A stretch of 64,000 nucleotides of DNA from Lachnospira sp. Lineage in GTDB: Bacteria > Bacillota > Clostridia > Lachnospirales > Lachnospiraceae. The first letter of the stretch is position 1; each line of letters opens with the position of its first letter. Positions 3,330 to 43,994 of this stretch are shown here, piece by piece. The position numbers were made by a program, and so were the translations under genes. The notes beneath the pieces were generated by a model. The model did not search any database. It was not told the DNA's origin and worked only from the letters and a program-made list of their open reading frames with translations. Where the stretch lies: the NCBI GenBank assembly GCA_050874305.1, contig JBNMKL010000006.1, positions 1,651 to 65,650 on the forward strand, written 5' to 3'.

Positions 3330-3713
3330 ATGCAATCAAAAGTAAATGAGGCGGCTCAAAGAAAAATGTGCGGCTATAATTGTGCCCAGGCTGTAGCATG
3401 CACATATTGTGATATGGCTGGGATTGATGAAGAAACAGCAAAGAATCTTACGCAGGGCTTTGCGGTAGGTATGGGTGGCAGTACAGAGGCAACCTGTGGT
3501 GCAATAATCGGTGCAGTTAATGTATTAGGTATGATTAATAAAGATGCACAGAAAACAATGCAGGGGTCAAGAAGAATAATAAATAGATTCAAGGAACAGA
3601 ATGGCACAGTTATATGTAAGGAATTAAAAGGAATAACGGATGGAGTTGTAAAAAGGGAATGTATTGACTGCGTGAAGGATGCAGCATTATTTCTTGAGGA
3701 TGAATTGAAATAA
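3330..3713 (+). CDS. C-GCAxxG-C-C family putative redox protein
   Basis: YNCAQAV, ATCGAIIG, ICKELK and CIDCV cysteine pattern. Confidence 0.85.
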   Translation: MQSKVNEAAQRKMCGYNCAQAVACTYCDMAGIDEETAKNLTQGFAVGMGGSTEATCGAIIGAVNVLGMINKDAQKTMQGSRRIINRFKEQNGTVICKELKGITDGVVKRECIDCVKDAALFLEDELK

Positions 3714-4372: not shown

Positions 4373-5206
4373 TTACCATGTCAATGAGAATTCCACTAAT
4401 TCTGGTGTTTCTGGTTTACCAATCAATGGCTCTTTTCTGTCCAGAGCAGCAAGCTGTGTCATTTCATCAGCAGTTAAAGTAAAATCAAATAAATCAAAAT
4501 TCTCTTTGATGTGCTCTGGCTGGGTGCTTCTCGGAATAACGGCAATGCCTTTCTGTGTCAGAAAACGAAGGAGTATCTGTGCTGGAGTTTTATTGTATTT
4601 TTTGGTAAGTGCAAGAACCACAGGCTCATTAAACATTTCGTTGCGGTTGCCCTGACCGAGCGGTGCATAAGCCATGTGTGCGACCTGCTTTTTGTCCATC
4701 CAGCTACGTTCTGTACTGCGCTGGCAGTAAATGTTGGTTTCAATCTGATTGACAGCAGGGATAATTTTATTGTAGGCAATCAGGTCAAGAAGCTGGTCTG
4801 GTTCAAAGTTAGAAACACCGATAGCACGAACCTTTCCTGCATCATACAGCTTTTCAAGAGCACGCCATGCCGCATAATAATTGGCAAATGGCCAGTGCAA
4901 AAGTAACAGGTCGATATAGTCAGTTTGTAGATTTTCAAGTGACTGAATTACTGTTTGCTCTGCATTTTCATAAGATTTGAAATTCACCTTTGTGACGAGA
5001 AACAGCTCATTGCGGTCAATTCCGCTCTGTTTGATGCCTTCGCCTACTTCTTTTTCATTGCCGTAGGCTTCGGCAGTATCAATCATTCGATAGCCATTTT
5101 CAATTGCTGTCGCAACTGCATTTTTACAGGTCTCACCACCAAGCATAAATGTACCAAATCCGACAAGCGGCATCTGAACGCCGTTATTCAAAGTCAAATA
5201 TTCCAT
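4373..5206 (-). CDS. Aldo/keto reductase (2,5-diketo-D-gluconate reductase-like)
   Basis: GYRMIDTAEAYGNE, LFLVTK, DLLLLHWP, IGVSNF, NQIE, AYAPLG, VIPRS motifs. Confidence 0.95.
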   Translation of the reverse strand: MEYLTLNNGVQMPLVGFGTFMLGGETCKNAVATAIENGYRMIDTAEAYGNEKEVGEGIKQSGIDRNELFLVTKVNFKSYENAEQTVIQSLENLQTDYIDLLLLHWPFANYYAAWRALEKLYDAGKVRAIGVSNFEPDQLLDLIAYNKIIPAVNQIETNIYCQRSTERSWMDKKQVAHMAYAPLGQGNRNEMFNEPVVLALTKKYNKTPAQILLRFLTQKGIAVIPRSTQPEHIKENFDLFDFTLTADEMTQLAALDRKEPLIGKPETPELVEFSLTW

Positions 5207-6945: not shown

Positions 6946-7186
6946 AATGATATGTCCAAAATGTGGAAAAGAAATGCAGGCTGGAGCACTTGGACCAACT
7001 GAAAAGGGGTCACTGTTCTGGGCTGATAACGAATATTTTAAGAACAAATTCAATAATTTTATGACGTTAAGAAATGCGTTAAATAATGGAGCAATCCGTA
7101 TACGTGTTGGAAATGGATTGACAAGTGACCGCACAAAGGCTTGGGCTTGCAGGGACTGCAAGATGGTGTTGGTGGATTGCAATTAA
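6935..7186 (+). CDS. Small zinc-ribbon protein (PF20097/DUF6487-like)
   Basis: N-terminal CPKCGKEM..G and C-terminal AWACRDCK; overlaps the panE stop. Confidence 0.6.
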   Translation: MQNKMICPKCGKEMQAGALGPTEKGSLFWADNEYFKNKFNNFMTLRNALNNGAIRIRVGNGLTSDRTKAWACRDCKMVLVDCN

Positions 7187-7215
7187 GTGGAATACGGAGG
7201 GCAGGAAGTGAAAAT

Positions 7216-7244
7216 ACCCTCCTGCAATAATTCATTACAGGAGG
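7216..7244. terminator. Terminator hairpin between convergent genes
   Basis: CCCTCCTGCAAT / ATTACAGGAGGG, one mismatch. Confidence 0.6.
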
Positions 7245-7263
7245 GATGTGAATTTATCGGTAT

Positions 7264-7899
7264 TTATTTTCGTGCGACAAGGTGTGCGCGGAAAGACTTC
7301 TGTTTCTCCATAGTAAGTACTGTAAAACCGGCTTTTTCAGCCATTGCAATGAATTCGTCAACTTTATGTATTTTCACATCACCATGACCGCACAGATTTG
7401 CAAGAGGCATTTCAAAATGGTTCATCAGCCATACTACGAAATTAGATGATGTGTAGTCACGCAGAATCAGTCGTCCGCCTTTTCGCAGGACGCGGTATGC
7501 ACTATTGAAAAAGTTCTGAGGATTAGGGTAATGGTGGAAACTGTTTGAACAGATAATTGCATCAAATGAATTCTCTTCAAATGGCAGATTTTCACTATCG
7601 CCCACAACAAATTCAGTGTTGGAAAGCTTTTTTGCATTGGCAACATTAATCATCTCAGGTGTGAGGTCAAGACCAACATAGTGCTTATCTGGGTATTTGT
7701 CGTGGAGAAGCTGAATCATTGGCCCTGTTCCACAGCCGCAGTCTAATACATCATTGAATTTCTCTTTTTCTAATTCTGCCAGAATTGGTGGATAATCGTC
7801 TTTGCACATTTCATAAATGCCAGAATGTCCGCTGTCATATATTTTAGCTGCTTCTGTAAATTCTTTGATAGAGAGCTGTTTATATTTTTCAGGTGTCAT
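7264..7899 (-). CDS. Class I SAM-dependent methyltransferase (UbiE-like)
   Basis: VLDCGCGTG, GLDLTPEM, GDSENLPF..NSFDAI, LRKGGRL. Confidence 0.9.
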   Translation of the reverse strand: MTPEKYKQLSIKEFTEAAKIYDSGHSGIYEMCKDDYPPILAELEKEKFNDVLDCGCGTGPMIQLLHDKYPDKHYVGLDLTPEMINVANAKKLSNTEFVVGDSENLPFEENSFDAIICSNSFHHYPNPQNFFNSAYRVLRKGGRLILRDYTSSNFVVWLMNHFEMPLANLCGHGDVKIHKVDEFIAMAEKAGFTVLTMEKQKSFRAHLVARK

Positions 7900-10189: not shown

Positions 10190-11155
10190 ATGAAGATACT
10201 TATGCTTGATACTGTTACATACGGAGATGACATTTCTCTTGATAAGTTTAACCAGCTTGGTGAGGTTATCACATATAGCAACAGCACGCATGAAGAGGCG
10301 GTAGCCAGAGTTAAGGAGCATAATCCAACGATTGTTGTTACTAACAAGGTGGTTATTGATAAAGACATATTCGAGGCAGGAAGTGAGATTAAAATGGTCG
10401 CTGAGACTGCTACAGGATATAACAATATTGATATAGAATATGCCAAGGCGCATGGCATAAGGGTTGCAAATGTCGCCGGCTATTCGACACAGTCTGTTAT
10501 ACAGCATACATTTTCACTCCTTTTCTATGTATTTGAGAAGATGAATTATTATGACAGATATGTAAAGAGTGGCGAATATGCCAAATCAGCCAGCTTCACA
10601 CATTTTGATAATGTATTCCATGAACTGTATGGCAAGACATATGGAATAGTAGGTCTTGGCAATATCGGACGTGGTGTAGCTAAGATTGCCACTGATTTCG
10701 GATGCAGGGTTATATACTATTCAGCCAGCGGACATAAGCAGTATGTGCCATATGAGTGTGTTGACCTTGATACATTTTTGAAAGAATCGGACATAGTATC
10801 AATCCATGCTCCACTCAATGATAAGACTAAAAATCTGTTTAATTATGACAATCTTAAAAAGATGAAATCATCAGCCGTCCTTCTTAACTTAGGCAGAGGT
10901 CCAATCATCAATGACGCTGACCTCGCCAGAGCCTTAAAAGAGAACATTATCGCTGCCGCTGGTTTAGACGTAATAACCACTGAGCCAATCGCCGCAGATA
11001 ATCCACTTCTCGAAATACAGGACAGCGATAAAATGGTTATAACACCTCACATTGCATGGGCAACCTACGAAGCCAGAACCCGCCTCATGAACCTCGTCTA
11101 CGAGAACATTGAAAGCTTTTTAAATGGCAAGGAAGAAAAGAACGTAGTGGTCTAA
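10190..11155 (+). CDS. D-2-hydroxyacid dehydrogenase (glycerate dehydrogenase/HprA-like)
   Basis: ATGYNNID, GIVGLGNIG, SIHAPL, LNLGRG, LDV..TEP, TPHIAW. Confidence 0.92.
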   Translation: MKILMLDTVTYGDDISLDKFNQLGEVITYSNSTHEEAVARVKEHNPTIVVTNKVVIDKDIFEAGSEIKMVAETATGYNNIDIEYAKAHGIRVANVAGYSTQSVIQHTFSLLFYVFEKMNYYDRYVKSGEYAKSASFTHFDNVFHELYGKTYGIVGLGNIGRGVAKIATDFGCRVIYYSASGHKQYVPYECVDLDTFLKESDIVSIHAPLNDKTKNLFNYDNLKKMKSSAVLLNLGRGPIINDADLARALKENIIAAAGLDVITTEPIAADNPLLEIQDSDKMVITPHIAWATYEARTRLMNLVYENIESFLNGKEEKNVVV

Positions 11156-11423
11156 AATTATAAAACTGTACCGCCACCGGGTGCCCTGCCAGCAGTAATC
11201 TGTCCCACAACCTTCCATGTCGGCGTGTCGTGCAGCTCTTAGGTTAGTGTAAGACATAAAGCTAATCATAATGCTAAACGTTCAAGCGAAGCGCGTTTTT
11301 AGCATTATGATTAAATAAGCTTATGTCGTACTAACCTTAGAGATGCTAGACACAGAGACCCAGGAAGGTTGTGGGACAGATTACTGCTGGCAGGGCACCC
11401 GGTGGCGGTACAGTTTTATAATT
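11156..11423 (+). repeat. Fold-back element A: 268-bp giant hairpin with 61-bp perfect terminal inverted arms
   Basis: 11156-11216 is the exact reverse complement of 11363-11423; nested inner stems (e.g. 16 bp, 11263-11278 / 11298-11313); apex contains GCGAAGC (11286-11292); core homologous to 29784-29928. Confidence 0.9.
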
Positions 11424-11478
11424 GTAGAGGCGTGTGAGATAAGTGTGACAAAATTTATTAAAAAAATTTCAAAACCCA

Positions 11479-24950: not shown

Positions 24951-25029
24951 AGCCAAGAAAGATATAAGAGTGCGTAGACACAAAACGAATCCCCATGAGA
25001 TTGCAGCTCATGGGGATTCTTCTCGTTTT
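24951..25029 (+). ncRNA. Putative type I antitoxin sRNA (~80 nt)
   Basis: No ORF follows the promoter. Carries GAAAGATATAAGA (24957-24969) and CGTAGACAC (24973-24981), complementary to the toxin mRNA on both sides of its start codon. Ends in a 13-bp hairpin (24987-24999 / 25007-25019) plus T-run. Confidence 0.7.
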
Positions 25030-25051
25030 AATCGGTTGAGCATCCGTCAGG

Positions 25052-25147
25052 TTAATTGTCGTTGTTCTTTCTATCTAGCCATTTGCAGATGTAGTAGCCA
25101 ACTACACTTGCCATGATAGAAATAAGGAAAGATATAAGAATATCCAA
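25052..25147 (-). CDS. Type I toxin-antitoxin toxin peptide (Fst/Ldr-like, 31 aa); absent from the ORF track
   Basis: GGAGG RBS 8 nt before TTG; MDILISFLISIMASVVGYYICKWLDRKNNDN: one hydrophobic helix, a conserved-type W and a charged tail. Confidence 0.8.
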   Translation of the reverse strand: MDILISFLISIMASVVGYYICKWLDRKNNDN

Positions 25148-25195
25148 CGTAGACACCTCCCTTCTGTTGCCAGAATGAGTACAACAACAATAGTT

Positions 25196-25204
25196 ATTAT
25201 AACA
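25196..25204 (-). promoter_or_regulatory. Extended -10 promoter for the toxin mRNA
   Basis: TGTTATAAT on the minus strand; -35 is weak. Confidence 0.55.
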
Positions 25205-25281: not shown

Positions 25282-25307
25282 AGGATAATTACATATTAAT
25301 AATCTTA

Positions 25308-26006
25308 TTATCTTATTGCATCTAAAGCAGATGATGCTATTCCGATAATTACTGTCCATGAGATGCCAAAAACTACAGAGATAACAAGCATGATAGTGCA
25401 TATTTTAATGCAGGATTCATATTTGTCGTATCTTCCATAACGGAAATTATTGTTGGCATTAAATAAAAGAATCAGTGCGATAATACCAAATAATCTGCTG
25501 AACAGAATGATGCAGATTATTGAAAATACAAGCAGTGGAGTGAACTTAGGACAGTTCTGTGGCTTGTTGTAGTTGTTATAGCCATTGTTGTATCCATTAG
25601 GCTGGTTATTATAGGTGTTGTTCTGATTATTGTAATTATTATAACCAGAGTTATAGTTATTCTGATTGCTGTTATAGCCGGTATTATAACTGTTCTGGCT
25701 GCCATAACTGTTGTTGTTCTGAGCACCATAGTCGTTATACTGTGAATTATAGCTGTTATTCTGTGAGGTATAATTATTGTTCTGGCTGTCATAACTATTA
25801 TTCTGCGAATTATAACTGTTGTAATCAGAGCTATCAGACTGGCTGTTCTGCGTATTTGTATTATCTGAATAAGATGTATACTCCTTGTTTGGGTCATTAG
25901 AATAATCATCTGTATAACTGCCGTAGTTTCGCTGGCTGTTATCAGAAGATTCATTTGGGTCCTGGTTCTGGTTGTTCCAGAATGGATCTGGTGTATAATT
26001 ATCCAT
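25308..26006 (-). CDS. CD225/dispanin-like membrane protein with long N/Y/S/Q-rich low-complexity N-terminus
   Basis: GAGG RBS before the ATG at 26006; ~150 aa polar low-complexity region, then PLLVFSIICIILFSRLFGIIALILLFNANNNFRYGRYD...IMLVISVVFG, matching the CD225 two-segment pattern. Confidence 0.7.
   Translation of the reverse strand: MDNYTPDPFWNNQNQDPNESSDNSQRNYGSYTDDYSNDPNKEYTSYSDNTNTQNSQSDSSDYNSYNSQNNSYDSQNNNYTSQNNSYNSQYNDYGAQNNNSYGSQNSYNTGYNSNQNNYNSGYNNYNNQNNTYNNQPNGYNNGYNNYNKPQNCPKFTPLLVFSIICIILFSRLFGIIALILLFNANNNFRYGRYDKYESCIKICTIMLVISVVFGISWTVIIGIASSALDAIR
25695..25823 (-). repeat. Imperfect 21-nt coding tandem repeat (~6 units of SQNNSYN-like heptads)
   Basis: Units start on + at 25695, 25719, 25740, 25761, 25782 and 25803 (CTG...ATA...TT). 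Confidence 0.75.
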
Positions 26007-26236
26007 ATATGTCCTCATTTCTTTGCATAATTTAATATATAAATTGCTGATTTCTCATGTTTTGCGGGGTACAAGTTCAAAGCTTTTAACCCTAAAAACA
26101 TAATAAACATACATAAGTAATGCGTCAAGTATAAATTGACTTTAGATACAGTCAGGTAATAATATAAGATAATAACAATATGCAAATGTATTTTGAAGTT
26201 AGATTATAATTTTAATAATAAAGTATATTTTAAAGG

Positions 26237-27012: not shown

Positions 27013-28452
27013 ATGGCAGAGGATAAAAAGTTAGTTGAAGCTATTACATCTATGGATGTAGATTTTGCACAGTGGTATACAGATGTCTGCAAGAAAGCAG
27101 AGCTTATGTCTTACTCAAGTGTTAAGGGATGTATGATATTTAAGCCGGCTGGATATGCAATCTGGGAGAACATACAGAAAGAAATGGATAGAAGGTTCAA
27201 GGAGGTTGGAGTTGAGAATGTATATCTTCCAATGTTTATTCCAGAGAGCCTTCTTGAGAAGGAAAAAGACCATGTAGAAGGATTTGCACCAGAAGTTGCA
27301 TGGGTAACACAGGGGGGACTTAATCCACTTCAGGAGAAAATGTGTGTACGTCCTACATCAGAGACATTATTCTGTGATTTCTACAAGGATGAGATTCAGT
27401 CATACAGAGATTTACCAAAGGTATATAACCAGTGGTGTTCAGTTGTAAGATGGGAGAAGGAGACAAGACCATTCCTTCGTTCAAGAGAGTTCTTATGGCA
27501 GGAAGGACATACAGCACACGCAACAGCAGAAGAGGCAGAGGCTAGAACACAGCAGATGCTTAATGTATATGCTGATTTCTGTGAGGAAGTACTTGCTATG
27601 CCAGTTATCAAGGGACGTAAGACAGACAAGGAAAAGTTCGCCGGAGCAGAGGCAACATACACAATCGAAGCACTCATGCATGATGGCAAGGCACTTCAGT
27701 CTGGTACAAGCCATAATTTTGGCGATGGATTTGCCAAAGCATTTGGAATACAGTATACAGATAAGGATAATAAGTTAAAGTATGTTCACCAGACATCATG
27801 GGGTTCAACAACAAGACTTATCGGTGCTATGATTATGGTTCATGGTGATAACAGCGGACTTGTTCTTCCACCAAGAATTGCACCTGTACAGGTTGATATT
27901 ATTCCAATTATGCAGAAGAAGGAAGGCGTTCTTGAGAAAGCGGCAGAGGTTGCAGCAGCACTCAAGGCAGCAGGACTTCGCGTTAAGGTTGATGACAGCG
28001 ATAAGAATCCAGGTTGGAAGTTCTCAGAGCAGGAGATGCGTGGTATTCCAGTACGTGTAGAGATGGGACCAAGAGATATCGAGGCTGGCAAGGCTATTAT
28101 CGTAAGAAGAGATACAAGAGAAAAGATTGAAGCACAGATAGATGGACTTGCAGACAAGATTAAGGAAGTACTTGATACAATGCAGGTTGAGATGCTTGAG
28201 AGAGCAAGAGCACACAGAGATGCACACACATATGTTGCAACTAACTATGATGAGTTCAAGGATATAGTTGCCAATAAGCCAGGATTTGTTAAGGCTATGT
28301 GGTGTGGCGACCAGGCTTGTGAGGACAAGATTAAGGAAGATACAACAGCTACATCAAGATGTATGCCATTTGCGCAGGAACAGCTCAGTGATGTATGTGT
28401 ATGCTGTGGAAAGCCAGCTAAGAAGATGGTTTACTGGGGTAAGGCGTACTAA
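27013..28452 (+). CDS. proS: Proline--tRNA ligase (archaeal/eukaryal-like type, no editing insertion)
   Basis: [40 protein letters not shown]-terminal YWGKAY. Confidence 0.96.
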
Positions 28453-28478: not shown

Positions 28479-29714
28479 ATGCAGCTTCCAGAGGATGTCA
28501 GAGCGATTATTGGCACAATTGAAGAACATGGATGCGAGGCTTATGCTGTCGGTGGATGTGTAAGAGACACATTGCTTGGAAAGACACCATATGACTGGGA
28601 TATAACCACATCAGCACTTCCTATGCAGGTCAAATCTATGTTTAAGAGAACTGTGGATACAGGGCTTAAACACGGCACAGTGACTGTTATGATAGGAAAG
28701 ACCGGCTATGAGGTCACAACCTACAGGATTGATGGTGAGTACAAAGACGGCAGGCATCCTGAAAATGTAGAATTTGCAGTTAATCTTCTTGAAGACCTTA
28801 AAAGAAGAGATTTCACTATCAATGCAATGGCGTATAGTGATAAAAACGGGCTTGTCGATGAATTTGACGGACAAGGTGACCTTGAACGCGGGATTGTAAG
28901 ATGTGTAGGTAATCCTATAGAGCGTTTTACAGAAGATGCCCTAAGAATGATGAGGGCTATAAGATTCTCGGCACAGCTTTCATTTGAGATAGATAAGGAG
29001 ACATATAAGGCTATTGAAAAGCTGTCTACTAATATCGCACAGGTAAGCATGGAAAGAATCCAGGTGGAGCTTACCAAGACAATTATGTCTGATAATCCGG
29101 AGAAGGTGGAGCTGTATTACGAGACTGGTATATTCTCGGTGGTTTTACCAGATGTTGCAGCTATATTTGAGGGAAGATACAGACAGAATGCCATTAGTAT
29201 GTTAAAACATACAGAAAAGACTGTTATATTAAGATATGCGGCACTTCTTAACTCTCTTGAGCCAGATAAGGCAAAGGGAGTTCTTAGAAGCCTTAAGCTG
29301 GACAACCACACTGTTGACAGTGTGACTGCTATCGTTGCTAATTCCAAGGTTACGATAGATGAGAATGAGCCGGCGATAAGAGAGGCATTAAATCGTTATG
29401 GAAGAGAACTTTTTGACAATCTTATCATACATGATGAGGCTCTTACGACAGCCAAGGAGGAGATTACAGGAATAATCCTTCCGGGAAAGCATAATCATAT
29501 AGCTGCCGTTAAGAAGATGATGGATGATATTATAGCAAGAGGCGATTGTGTGACGATTAAAGACCTTGATATAACCGGGAATGATTTAATTGAATATGGA
29601 ATGACGGGACCGCAGATTGGCAAGACGCTCAATGAATTGCTTCATGTTGTGATGGATAATCCGAAGCTTAATGACAAGGCGACGCTGCTTGCGATGCTGG
29701 AACATTTCAACTAA
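28479..29714 (+). CDS. cca: CCA tRNA nucleotidyltransferase
   Basis: AVGGCVRD, DWDITT, GLKHGT, EDLKRRDFTINAMA, EDALRMMRAIRF, ITGNDL. Confidence 0.93.
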   Translation: MQLPEDVRAIIGTIEEHGCEAYAVGGCVRDTLLGKTPYDWDITTSALPMQVKSMFKRTVDTGLKHGTVTVMIGKTGYEVTTYRIDGEYKDGRHPENVEFAVNLLEDLKRRDFTINAMAYSDKNGLVDEFDGQGDLERGIVRCVGNPIERFTEDALRMMRAIRFSAQLSFEIDKETYKAIEKLSTNIAQVSMERIQVELTKTIMSDNPEKVELYYETGIFSVVLPDVAAIFEGRYRQNAISMLKHTEKTVILRYAALLNSLEPDKAKGVLRSLKLDNHTVDSVTAIVANSKVTIDENEPAIREALNRYGRELFDNLIIHDEALTTAKEEITGIILPGKHNHIAAVKKMMDDIIARGDCVTIKDLDITGNDLIEYGMTGPQIGKTLNELLHVVMDNPKLNDKATLLAMLEHFN

Positions 29715-30002
29715 ACCCTGCCTGCGGCGCAGCCCGTGTGTACCGTATGCCCCTTGCAGGCTGTGTACCTATACCAGAATTGCATGACGACTGTCGTGTG
29801 GCTCTTAGGTCGGTGTTAGACATAAGATAAGTCGGATGCTAAACCGTTCAAGCGAAGCGCGTTTTTAGCAATCCGGCTTTAATATACTTTGTCGTGCCGA
29901 CCTTAGAGCCACTAGACACAAAGGACCAGCAATTCTGGTATAGGTACACAGCCTGCAAGGGGCATACGGTACACACGGGCTGAGCCACACGCAGGTTTAG
30001 TT
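29709..30002 (+). repeat. Fold-back element B: ~294-bp giant hairpin with 54-bp perfect arms plus imperfect extension
   Basis: 29730-29783 is the exact reverse complement of 29929-29982; AACTAAACC (29709-29717) / GGTTTAGTT (29994-30002); core ATGCTAAACCGTTCAAGCGAAGCGCGTTTTTAGCA equals element A except for one C. Confidence 0.9.
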
Positions 30003-30017
30003 AAAGATGTTGGTGGG

Positions 30018-30057
30018 AATGCTCTCAAGTTTTTAAACTTGAGGGCATTATTTTTTT
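30018..30057 (+). terminator. Rho-independent terminator directly after element B
   Basis: AATGCTCTCAAGTTT / AAACTTGAGGGCATT plus T7. Confidence 0.75.
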
Positions 30058-30107
30058 ATACCCTACATAATAATAGTTATGATTAATGAGTGTGGGGGAG
30101 ACTGTCA

Positions 30108-37431: not shown

Positions 37432-38520
37432 ATGAAATACGTTATTAACGGTAATTTTCTGTATGGTGCTGTGCTTGGTGTGCAGCGTTATGCAAGAGAG
37501 ATTACAGCTCAGCTAGATAAGTTAATAAAAGATAAGCCATATGAGGTAGAGATTGTCATGCCGTCAATTGACAGTGACGGGACATCTGTATTTGTCAGCA
37601 AATATCAGGCGTTATACAGCAATATAAAGGTTGTTGTGATAGATGGTGTGGCAGGAAGAAAATGGGATCAGATAGATTTTAACAGATATGTTAAAAAGGA
37701 AAATGCAAAGCCAGTGTATCTGTGTAATGAGGTATCTTTATTCATGAAGAATGGAATAGCTGTTATACATGATATAGCATTCAAGACACATCCGGGGTTC
37801 TTCACAGAACCGGGAGACTGGCATGAGATATTGTTCAGAAAGCTTATGTACCGCACCGCATTTAAGAAAGCAGATGCGGTTATAACAGTAAGCGAATTTT
37901 CCAAGAAAGAGATACTTGGTAATTACAGATTGAAAAATCCGGACATAATTGTTGCAGGCAATGGATGGCAGCATTTTAACACGGACAATATAGATGAGCA
38001 TATATTTGACCAGTATGCGAGCAGGATTAAGCGTGGCAGTTATTATTTCTACATGGCATCACTTGCGCCTAACAAGAATCTTAGCTGGATAGCGGAGAAT
38101 GCTAAGAACAATCCACATTCGACATATGTTATTGCAGGTAAATCGCTGGGAGATAAGTCAGATATAACAAAATATCCTAATGTTGTGTATGTAGGATATG
38201 TGTCAGATGCCACAGCAAGGGCACTTATGAAGTACTGCAAGGCATTCCTGTTCCCTTCGACTTATGAAGGATTTGGAATACCACCTATGGAAGCGTTATG
38301 TATGGGAGCAAAGGTAGTGCTTGGTGATATACCAGTATTGCATGAGATATATGAGGATGTGGCGAAATACATCAATTGTAATAATCCGGCAGTTAATCTG
38401 GATTCACTGGTTGATGGCTGGTATCTTGATGAGGAACGTGTTGTAGAGGTATTAAAAAAACATTCATGGCTTGAATCGGCTAAGAAGCTGTGTGAATGTA
38501 TGGACAGGGAGGCTGTATGA
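37432..38520 (+). CDS. GT4 glycosyltransferase
   Basis: GVQRYAREI, IHD, ITVSEFSK, FPSTYEGFGIPPMEA. Confidence 0.9.
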   Translation: MKYVINGNFLYGAVLGVQRYAREITAQLDKLIKDKPYEVEIVMPSIDSDGTSVFVSKYQALYSNIKVVVIDGVAGRKWDQIDFNRYVKKENAKPVYLCNEVSLFMKNGIAVIHDIAFKTHPGFFTEPGDWHEILFRKLMYRTAFKKADAVITVSEFSKKEILGNYRLKNPDIIVAGNGWQHFNTDNIDEHIFDQYASRIKRGSYYFYMASLAPNKNLSWIAENAKNNPHSTYVIAGKSLGDKSDITKYPNVVYVGYVSDATARALMKYCKAFLFPSTYEGFGIPPMEALCMGAKVVLGDIPVLHEIYEDVAKYINCNNPAVNLDSLVDGWYLDEERVVEVLKKHSWLESAKKLCECMDREAV

Positions 38521-42965: not shown

Positions 42966-43994
42966 ATGAAATATTGCATAGATGGAAGATTTTTGGCACA
43001 GATGTCATCAGGGGTTGACAGATATGCATATAACATAGTTCTTGCTCTGGATAAGATATGTGGTGGCAAGGATATTGAGATTATTATTCCGCCAGATGTT
43101 AAGAATACACCAGATTATAAGAATATCAAAAAAGTTGTTATGAGAAGCTCTAAGATGTGGACACAGGGAGTATTTGGAATATATGCCAGAAAAACTGGGC
43201 GTATACCAGTTAATCTGTGTAATGAGGTATCTTTGATAGCACCAAGGGGAATTGTATGTCTGCATGATGTGTGCTATGCAGAGAGTGAGGATTTATTCCC
43301 ACAGATTAAAGATTATCCAGAGGATGAGATTTCATGGTTTAATGATATATATAAAAGAATCAAGAAAAAAGCAGACAGGGTAATCACTGTATCAGAGTTT
43401 TCCAAGGGCAGGATTATGGACAGGCTTGGAATAGCCGCAGATAAAATTACTGTAATAGGCAATGGATGGCAGCACTTTGAAGGAGTAAAAACTGATGATA
43501 CGGTTCTTGATAAGTTTAATCTGACTAAGGGAAAATATTTCTTTACAGTAAGCTCGCCTAATAAGAATAAGAATGTCAACTGGGTTCTGGAATGTGCCAA
43601 AGCTAATCCTGATGAGACATTCGTGATAGCTGGCAAAAATCTTGAGCGGATAATTGAAAGCCAGAAATGCAAGAATGTAATATATGCAGGATTTGCGAGT
43701 GATGAACAGGTTAAATCGCTTATGACATATTGCAGGGCATTCATATTTCCTTCATATTATGAAGGATTTGGAATACCGCCACTTGAGGCGCTAAGCACAG
43801 GATGCAGGATAATCGTATCAGACAGGGCGAGTCTTCCAGAGATATTCGGGGATGCGGCTGTGTATATATCGCCAGATGACCCATATGTCAATATTGAGCA
43901 GTTACTTGAACAGCATGTGGCTGACGGACAGAAAATACTTGATAAGTATAGCTGGGACAAACAAGCACATAAATTAAACGAATTGTTAGCATAA
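42966..43994 (+). CDS. GT4 glycosyltransferase (paralog of 37432-38520)
   Basis: GVDRYAYNI, LHD, PNKNKN, FPSYYEGFGIPPLEA. Confidence 0.9.
   Translation: MKYCIDGRFLAQMSSGVDRYAYNIVLALDKICGGKDIEIIIPPDVKNTPDYKNIKKVVMRSSKMWTQGVFGIYARKTGRIPVNLCNEVSLIAPRGIVCLHDVCYAESEDLFPQIKDYPEDEISWFNDIYKRIKKKADRVITVSEFSKGRIMDRLGIAADKITVIGNGWQHFEGVKTDDTVLDKFNLTKGKYFFTVSSPNKNKNVNWVLECAKANPDETFVIAGKNLERIIESQKCKNVIYAGFASDEQVKSLMTYCRAFIFPSYYEGFGIPPLEALSTGCRIIVSDRASLPEIFGDAAVYISPDDPYVNIEQLLEQHVADGQKILDKYSWDKQAHKLNELLA

Follow-up and report, generated by a model that had tools for sequence, protein, structure and literature searches.

Two fold-back elements at gene ends

The window analysed here, a stretch of 64,000 nucleotides (nt) from Lachnospira sp. 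contig JBNMKL010000006.1, contains two large fold-back elements, A and B, each abutting the 3′ end of a gene. Element B (29701–30011, + strand, 311 nt) abuts cca (28479–29714, +), which encodes the CCA-adding enzyme (Pfam PolyA_pol, PolyA_pol_RNAbd and tRNA_NucTran2_2) and has proS (27013–28452) upstream. The element is an inverted repeat with a predicted RNA minimum free energy (MFE) of −206 kcal/mol, against −92 ± 4.8 kcal/mol for shuffled sequences (z −23.6). Its outer arms, 83 nt each, are 88% complementary. The left arm (29701–29783) is copy-specific, its first 14 nt being the last cca codons and the stop codon, and the right arm (29929–30011) ends in a tip, at about 29990–30011, that repeats the cca 3′ end, imperfectly and in inverted orientation. 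Between the arms lies a conserved core (29784–29928, +) that consists, in the consensus structure of the alignment described below, of five helices separated by conserved internal loops. The core carries the apex motif GTTCAAGCGAAGCGCGTT (29846–29863, +), which includes the GCGAAGC mini-hairpin at 29852–29858. An intrinsic-terminator-like hairpin with a T-run follows at 30018–30059 (+), outside the element, in agreement with the canonical terminator originally predicted at this position. Because B lies between the cca stop codon and this terminator, its position alone indicates that it is probably co-transcribed with cca.

Element A (11151–11428, +, 278 nt) starts where a 2-hydroxyacid dehydrogenase gene (10190–11155) has its stop codon, and a gene for an extracytoplasmic function (ECF) sigma factor comes after it. 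Its core occupies 11217–11362 (+), with the apex motif at 11280–11297 and the mini-hairpin at 11286–11292; its arms of 66 nt are 98% complementary, and its MFE is −194 kcal/mol (z −25.2 against shuffles). Pairwise alignment confines the homology of A and B to the central 145 nt or so. Outside it, the arms of A bear no sequence relation to those of B, yet each pair is complementary. A promoter scan within A and B found none, and Rfam 15, run over the whole window, gave no match to either element at the gathering threshold; at E ≤ 10, the segment 29650–30080 returned nothing but a chance snoRNA match.

A hairpin family in gut Firmicutes

A 20-mer from the apex recovered nine copies in two uncultured Lachnospira/Eubacterium genomes, together with related long hairpins bearing the identical apex in Mitsuokella and in one genome of the Veillonellaceae. 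When metagenome contigs were scanned with an 18-mer, at least 120 loci emerged, nearly all from human gut. The hairpin arms measure from 70 to more than 200 nt and the whole elements from 160 to about 600 nt, around a core of about 145–150 nt. The copies fall into at least three subfamilies, whose stems are wholly different and whose architecture and apex are common. The finished [Eubacterium] eligens ATCC 27750 megaplasmid carries copies of one subfamily. Copies are sparse and unevenly spread: a 627-kb replicon has three, all of them beyond its first 50 kb.

Plasmid and phage collections contained copies only in the megaplasmid (two L. eligens records). Scans of viral contigs gave chance matches and no true copies, and BLAST found no match to the A core among plasmids and phages or to the high-GC subfamily among plasmids. 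No Rfam family was found at the gathering threshold at the hairpins of 13 other loci. The neighbours are unrelated housekeeping genes, among them those for an ABC/FtsX transporter, a DEAD-box helicase, TruA, ArgH, GyrA, pyruvate kinase and hydrogenase, and clustering of the neighbours for a cis-linked protein showed only housekeeping families to recur. The elements form a large, apparently uncatalogued hairpin-repeat family of gut Firmicutes, with dozens of copies in gut Lachnospiraceae, Negativicutes and probably high-GC Clostridia that annotation pipelines, Rfam and the literature searched leave unnamed. Cultured carriers are Lachnospira eligens ATCC 27750 and Mitsuokella multacida DSM 20544.

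The core fold is maintained by compensatory change

The original prediction, made from the window alone, held that the stems of A and B differ in sequence and stay paired, with their unpaired parts conserved. Re-reading of the stems and an alignment of 31 cores show that the compensatory changes are genuine and hold across the family. The stem GTGGCTCT/AGAGCCAC of B is fully paired; its counterpart in A, GCAGCTCT/AGAGATGC, is paired at 7 of 8 positions with one G-A, and two positions are changed on both sides. Between AGGTTAGT/ACTAACCT in A and AGGTCGGT/GCCGACCT in B, there are two double changes and a T29814–G29896 wobble, which G-T and T-G pairs adjoin in the consensus fold of the A/B subfamily. 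The third stem is likewise changed on both sides, and has a T29832–G29876 wobble and a 1-nt bulge. Both T-G wobbles of B are present where they had been placed. The T-T mismatch in CTCTTAGG/CCTTAGAG, the GT/TA 2×2 loop and the apex CGTTCAAGCGAAGCGCGTTTTTAGC are the same in A and B, and all three are kept across the 31 aligned copies.

The 31 dereplicated cores, which represent two subfamilies (alignment A2), were given a consensus structure with RNAalifold. It has 50 predicted pairs, and 43 of these show double-sided changes. Standard pairs occupy 91.6% of the cells, as against 33–47% when the partners are slid by 1–3 columns; the covariation score is 0.675, as against 0.08–0.15 in the slid structures, and none of 500 shuffles matched the observed values. 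A sample of more than 20 copies, the size proposed at the outset for a covariation analysis, thus bears out the fold. The third, high-GC subfamily (alignment A4, 18 copies) has 56 pairs with double changes in 33. The loops that are conserved in sequence comprise the 2×2 GT/TA loop, TTAA/TTTA or T-T, an A-rich asymmetric loop (ACAAAAG / GTAATAAAC) and the basal loop. The core fold is maintained by compensatory change.

One strand of the core is favoured

The strand carrying 5′-GTTCAAGCGAAGCGCG-3′ is here called the plus strand. In A2 this strand has 66 G-U against 29 A-C cells (23 against 15 by columns), and in A4 it has 56 against 15 (22 against 10 by columns). The two alignments favour the same strand for wobbles and sum to 122 G-T against 44 A-C cells in favour of the apex-bearing strand; the inequality of G-T and A-C between the strands, on which the idea of a single selected strand depended, is thus present in both. 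Isolated transition mismatches in the core are plus-strand wobbles in 34 cases and minus-strand wobbles in 6, and in the outer arms they are symmetric (40 and 43). Of 63 dereplicated copies, 55 reach a lower MFE on the plus strand than on its complement. In the B core, the predicted RNA folds have −61.0 kcal/mol on the + strand and −51.5 kcal/mol on the − strand, and the DNA folds −32.4 and −30.2 kcal/mol, respectively; in both A and B the plus strand of the core is the stabler as RNA and as DNA. Since the wobbles lie mostly on the GTTCAAGCGAAGCGCG strand, one folded single strand is under selection in the core. These data support selection of one folded strand in the core, with arms that behave symmetrically.

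The folding strand is typically antisense to the adjacent gene

Among 118 full hairpins, 77 have an edge within 40 nt of a stop codon, counting open reading frames (ORFs) of at least 150 amino acids. The plus strand is antisense to the abutting gene in 64 of these copies and sense in 13; by ortholog groups, 23 are antisense, 3 sense and 3 both. The bias is found in every subfamily. It also holds where the perfect inverted repeat is shorter than 25 nt and the assembly is therefore unambiguous (51 antisense against 5 sense copies; 20 against 2 groups). GC skew, which needs no ORF calls, puts the plus strand on the C-rich side of the locus in 28 groups, as against 10; throughout the window, the + strand is G-rich and gene-sense. 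At locus L096, two convergent genes have one element each and each element is antisense to its own gene, which indicates that polarity tracks the gene and not replication. A cruder ORF call had suggested random orientation, a result overturned by the stop-abutting and GC-skew counts.

As assembled, A and B belong to the 13 sense cases, a rare state. Their longest perfect inverted repeats are 61 nt (A) and 54 nt (B), so the orientation of their cores in a de Bruijn assembly may be arbitrary. In the orthologues L010 (of A) and L009 (of B), the core is reversed and antisense. A non-random orientation to neighbouring genes, as originally anticipated, is therefore found, in a direction that is typically antisense and not sense. 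Likewise, of the proposal that selection acts on a folded single strand that is the sense strand of the mRNA, the first part stands with the wobble bias of A2 and A4, and the second is not borne out, in view of the polarity (64 of 77 copies; 23 groups against 3) and of the apex described below. The typical mRNA would have A-C where the plus strand has G-U, which places the selected fold on the strand complementary to the mRNA.

These counts bear directly on the proposal that the element is a cis-acting structured RNA, a 3′-untranslated region (3′-UTR) of the upstream mRNA whose loops bind proteins and which might serve as an RNase III site or as a stabiliser. Such an RNA would account for the strong covariation and the conserved loops, and it agrees with the placement of B between the cca stop codon and the terminator, with the wobble-bearing strand being sense in A and B as assembled, and with the frequency of full hairpins near stop codons (77 of 118), by which most copies are probably transcribed by read-through. 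In 64 of the 77 copies, however, the mRNA would hold the complement of the folding strand, in which G-U pairs turn into A-C mismatches (122 A-C against 44 G-U cells), and the orthologues of both A and B are antisense. Moreover, 15 copies lie between divergent genes, a downstream terminator is not general, and the apex is of a type that is stable as DNA and not as RNA. We regard a sense-RNA function as quite improbable.

A downstream terminator is not a trait of the family, being found in 6 of 28 groups as compared with 4 in the control. Nor does the element act as a terminator or sit in a terminator loop: none of the 63 dereplicated hairpins has 6 or more T among the 9 nt past its right end, or 6 or more A among the 9 nt that precede its left end, so that no T-run follows the hairpins, and downstream terminators are at control level. 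Hairpins that appeared to reach regularly into coding ends proved mostly to be over-extended weak alignments, with B among the few real cases.

The apex bears a DNA-type mini-hairpin motif

The GCGAAGC apex is the same in 148 copies, which were found by the apex pattern; the evidence for its invariance accordingly comes from second copies in the loci, from six variants and from metagenome depth. Outside the pattern selection, the mini-hairpin variants are GCGGAGC (twice), GCGCAGC, GCGTAAGC and ACGAAGT, the last with both members of the closing pair altered and pairing retained. Changes next to the mini-hairpin, and outside it, are TCCAA for TTCAA and GCACG for GCGCG. Each change within the mini-hairpin falls on the free N or preserves the closing pair. 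The apex words reach a depth of 100–250 in four metagenomes from gut or manure, as compared with 7–15 for the flanks, and the sole variants listed are two single-base insertions in one run, one of which yields GCGTAAGC.

GCGNAGC and GCGNNAGC sequences form extraordinarily stable DNA mini-hairpins, and their RNA forms are much weaker (2026 review, PMC13037366). Natural cases are the primase sites of phages G4, St-1 and alpha3, ssiA of RSF1010 and the promoter hairpin of the phage N4 virion RNA polymerase (PMC13037366). Variation in the mini-hairpin is confined to the N of GCG-N(N)-AGC, ACGAAGT having a compensated closing pair, and the variants fit the sequence of the DNA-type GCGNAGC/GCGNNAGC motif.

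A DNA-type apex, antisense polarity and selection for folding of the complementary strand would all be explained by one mechanism if 3′-UTR read-through transcripts were copied by a trans-acting reverse transcriptase, with the putative cDNA, which would be the well-folding strand with its DNA mini-hairpin, serving as a transposition intermediate or as a product resembling the multicopy single-stranded DNA (msDNA) of retrons. Such copying would also fit the lack of a promoter of the element's own. On the other side, none of the copies has a linked reverse transcriptase, the element brings neither a poly-A nor a terminator with it, and no retron-like a1/a2 repeats were noted, msr and a1/a2 not having been searched for. 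We consider this route rather unlikely.

Some copies elaborate on the apex. In L025, L027, L035, L085 and L130 (for example L025, about 4380–4520), three GCGAAGC motifs are present: that of the apex and two more, one per arm (TTTGCGAAGCGCGG, AAAAGCGAAGCAAAA). In L003 (about 7150–7290) and L118 (about 3540–3680), both of the Negativicutes type, an extra hairpin of about 80 nt interrupts the right half just past the apex; in L003 a second GCGAAGC motif lies in this hairpin, suggesting a branched (three-way) form.

Gain or loss and rearrangement of the element

Element B is polymorphic for presence at its orthologous site. Contigs of four runs (X4, X5, X6 and X7) from related strains join position 29724 to 30016 with a single A between them, so that 291 nt (29725–30015) are missing from this empty allele. 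It retains the cca end and the terminator, with a 100% match, and lacks the tip of the B right arm. Because the empty allele keeps the cca 3′ end, that end is native and the tip of the B right arm is its inverted copy, the signature that would be expected of template switching. All seven contigs with the exact Cca of the window (L134–L140, Logan) end about 45 nt past the stop codon, within the B left arm, which shows that short-read assemblies break systematically at the element.

Other alleles have lost or rearranged parts of the hairpin. In the B orthologue L009, half of the palindrome is lost at a GGTTTAG microhomology, and five loci have an internal deletion of 85 nt that removes the apex. 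In 8 of about 19 ortholog groups, cores occur in both orientations within the same arms; where the perfect repeat spans only about 21 nt, the inversion was checked by visual inspection. At most orthologous loci, the arms and the flanks are equally conserved among strains; the arms are replaced at a few loci, including A as compared with L010 and a manure-metagenome allele. The arms had been considered hypervariable or A-poor, a description abandoned in view of this conservation and of a modest composition bias. Only 10 non-orthologous pairs have any arm sequence in common.

Exchange between the arms could also keep them complementary, by gene conversion or template switching, with compensation as a by-product and no selection on a folded strand. 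The outer arms, with no wobble bias (40 and 43), the cores that invert between arms and the tip of the B right arm copied from the adjacent cca end are all of the kind that this process would leave. Homogenisation would, however, erase the asymmetric loops, which together with the apex are conserved across subfamilies with wholly different stems; nor does it account for the bias of core wobbles to one strand or for the strong gene polarity. We therefore hold it to be very improbable.

The site may instead be a domesticated one, resembling bacterial interspersed mosaic elements (BIMEs), in which a hairpin or cruciform at gene ends is bound by a nucleoid, topoisomerase or replication-restart protein to the benefit of the host. 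The position at gene 3′ ends is like that of repetitive extragenic palindromic (REP) elements and BIMEs of E. coli, at most loci the arms match the flanks in their conservation among strains, and the apex is conserved across Clostridia and Negativicutes. Hairpins of the GCGNAGC type are also found at primase and polymerase entry sites on single-stranded DNA (PMC13037366). Against such a role stand the presence/absence, half-deletion and internal-deletion alleles among close strains and the low, uneven density (3 copies in one 627-kb replicon), and no candidate for the binding protein has emerged. We judge host domestication to be unlikely.

A long-arm subgroup of about 600 nt (L083, L091 and L087, the last with two copies at about 453 and about 11387) has common ends, GCACATACA...TGTATGTGC. 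Its AT-rich arms are alike between loci, and a further copy-specific palindromic stretch flanks each copy. This subgroup is the best candidate for the recognition of true element ends and target sites.

At L103 (about 10400–10800), as compared with its orthologues L044, L061 and L094, the right flank and core are common and the left arm and flank are wholly different, which suggests rearrangement by recombination between two element copies. At L046 (about 7740–7800), to the left of the hairpin in gene orientation, a separate hairpin with a 17-bp stem (CAGGTGGAAGTATGTAT...ATACATATTTCCACCTG) lies between the stop codon and the element. The L090 allele is without it; there the whole intergenic region differs, with flanking genes about 98–99% identical.

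Comparison with known systems

The REP, BIME and REPIN sequences of Proteobacteria, with their RAYT enzymes, offer several points of likeness. They too are dispersed non-coding hairpin repeats found mainly at gene 3′ ends, probably act and move in the form of folded single-stranded DNA, and have no cis gene, the enzyme working in trans. By contrast, REPs are 20–40 nt long with a GTAG/CGTC tag, and the core of the present family measures about 150 nt and comprises five helices with conserved loops between them. In REPINs it is the arms that are conserved; here it is the centre, and the arms vary from copy to copy. The hosts here are Firmicutes, and no RAYT was seen in the loci of 8–14 kb.

Miniature inverted-repeat transposable elements (MITEs) that fold as long hairpins, such as Correia, ERIC and RUP/BOX, are similarly non-autonomous, largely palindromic, co-transcribed with their neighbours and presence-polymorphic, and compensatory substitutions have been reported for some hairpin MITEs. 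The defining marks of a MITE are nevertheless terminal inverted repeats conserved between copies and a duplicated target site. Neither was found here, where the similarity between copies stops at the core or at subfamily-specific arm ends. The attC sites of integrons share a variable sequence with a conserved imperfect palindrome, and are recognised as a folded single DNA strand whose unpaired bases give strand selectivity. In attC, however, the boxes lie at the stem base and the centre varies, whereas here the apex and internal loops are conserved and the stem bases are copy-specific; moreover, attC sites flank cassettes next to intI, and the neighbours here are housekeeping genes.

The single-strand initiation (ssi) signals and hairpin promoters of G4/St-1/alpha3, RSF1010 ssiA and phage N4 have a mini-hairpin of the same GCGNAGC class. 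These mini-hairpins form in single-stranded or extruded DNA and mark the entry of a polymerase or primase (PMC13037366). Unlike the present family, whose copies are scattered over chromosomes and have a far larger conserved fold, they are single functional sites of phages and plasmids. The msd/msDNA of retrons is alike in its inverted repeat and in a single-stranded DNA hairpin product complementary to the transcript, which matches the polarity observed here. Retrons, on the other hand, are single-copy defence loci with an adjacent reverse transcriptase, msr and a1/a2 repeats; no reverse transcriptase adjoins the element loci, and msr and a1/a2 features were not searched for.

The family lacks the defining features of Rfam families, MITEs (in their termini), REPs, attC sites, terminators and retrons, and has a partial likeness to all of them. 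With its conserved centre, variable arms and mini-hairpin apex, it is a new variant within the bacterial palindromic repeats.

A folded single-stranded DNA as the proposed functional form

We favour, as somewhat likelier true than false, the reading that A and B are copies of a chromosomal, non-coding palindromic repeat family, REP/BIME- or MITE-like in lifestyle, whose folded single-stranded DNA is read by a trans-acting protein. The core of about 150 nt is predicted to fold on one strand into a five-helix rod capped by the near-invariant apex, with copy-specific inverted arms that would extend it. The functional form would be folded single-stranded DNA, present as an extruded hairpin, a template strand or a copied strand. 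A trans-acting protein would read the loops and the apex, and would spread or maintain the element, much as with REP/RAYT, the ends of IS200/IS605, attC or ssi signals. The site 3′ of cca would then be one where insertions are tolerated or targeted, and its occupation would not reflect an RNA function of the cca mRNA.

Several points weigh against this reading. The single B-less allele could be a deletion and not an unoccupied site. Conserved termini were not found and the ends are copy-specific, so classical transposition is not demonstrated, and no direct repeat was seen at the B junctions as compared with the empty allele or at the clear ends of the short subfamily; the element boundaries are fuzzy because the flanks are often palindromic too. 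The copies were gathered by an exact apex pattern. The 122 and 44 wobble cells are phylogenetically non-independent, and come to 45 against 25 when counted by columns. No trans-acting protein was identified; a phmmer search of 1.19 Mb of 8–14-kb loci found no ORF like the TnpA of IS200/IS605, and a limited literature search found no specific description of the element, so that an earlier one may exist. Folding of the DNA in vivo is a prediction, and an antisense or independent transcript of the folding strand may exist, the contigs examined being unstranded.

In a bolder version, to which we give a rather small chance, the element would be expressed passively in the 3′ ends of host mRNAs. Its active form would be a complementary single-stranded DNA hairpin, either a cDNA made in trans in the manner of msDNA or of short interspersed nuclear elements (SINEs) or an extruded template strand, and a dedicated enzyme would read the apex and loops. 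This version would explain together the antisense polarity, the selection for folding on the strand that is not the mRNA and the DNA-type apex. If it is true, such elements would be a new class of bacterial mobile or templating element.

The conserved centre with its variable arms, the DNA-type apex and the polarity against the adjacent gene make the family a testable case for a function of folded single-stranded DNA on the bacterial chromosome. The element also has practical consequences, since it breaks assemblies, places inversion and deletion polymorphisms beside housekeeping genes and can mimic an RNA motif.

Other features of the window

The only Rfam match of the window at gathering score is to RF02442, Streptococcus sRNA (small RNA) SpF66, at 24979–25197 (−). 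It is full-length and scores 42.6 bits, as against a threshold of 42. The match lies upstream of a minus-strand ORF and may be a leader, an sRNA or a borderline match. A 30-nt inverted repeat (25287–25316 / 26164–26193, 80% complementary) encloses 847 nt with a minus-strand ORF at 25308–26018, and the segment 25287–26193 is possibly invertible or mobile. Finally, diverged direct repeats at 38224–38307 / 43719–43802 and 37945–37977 / 43446–43478, about 5.5 kb apart and with 76–82% identity, suggest paralogous genes in an apparent polysaccharide or glycosyltransferase cluster.

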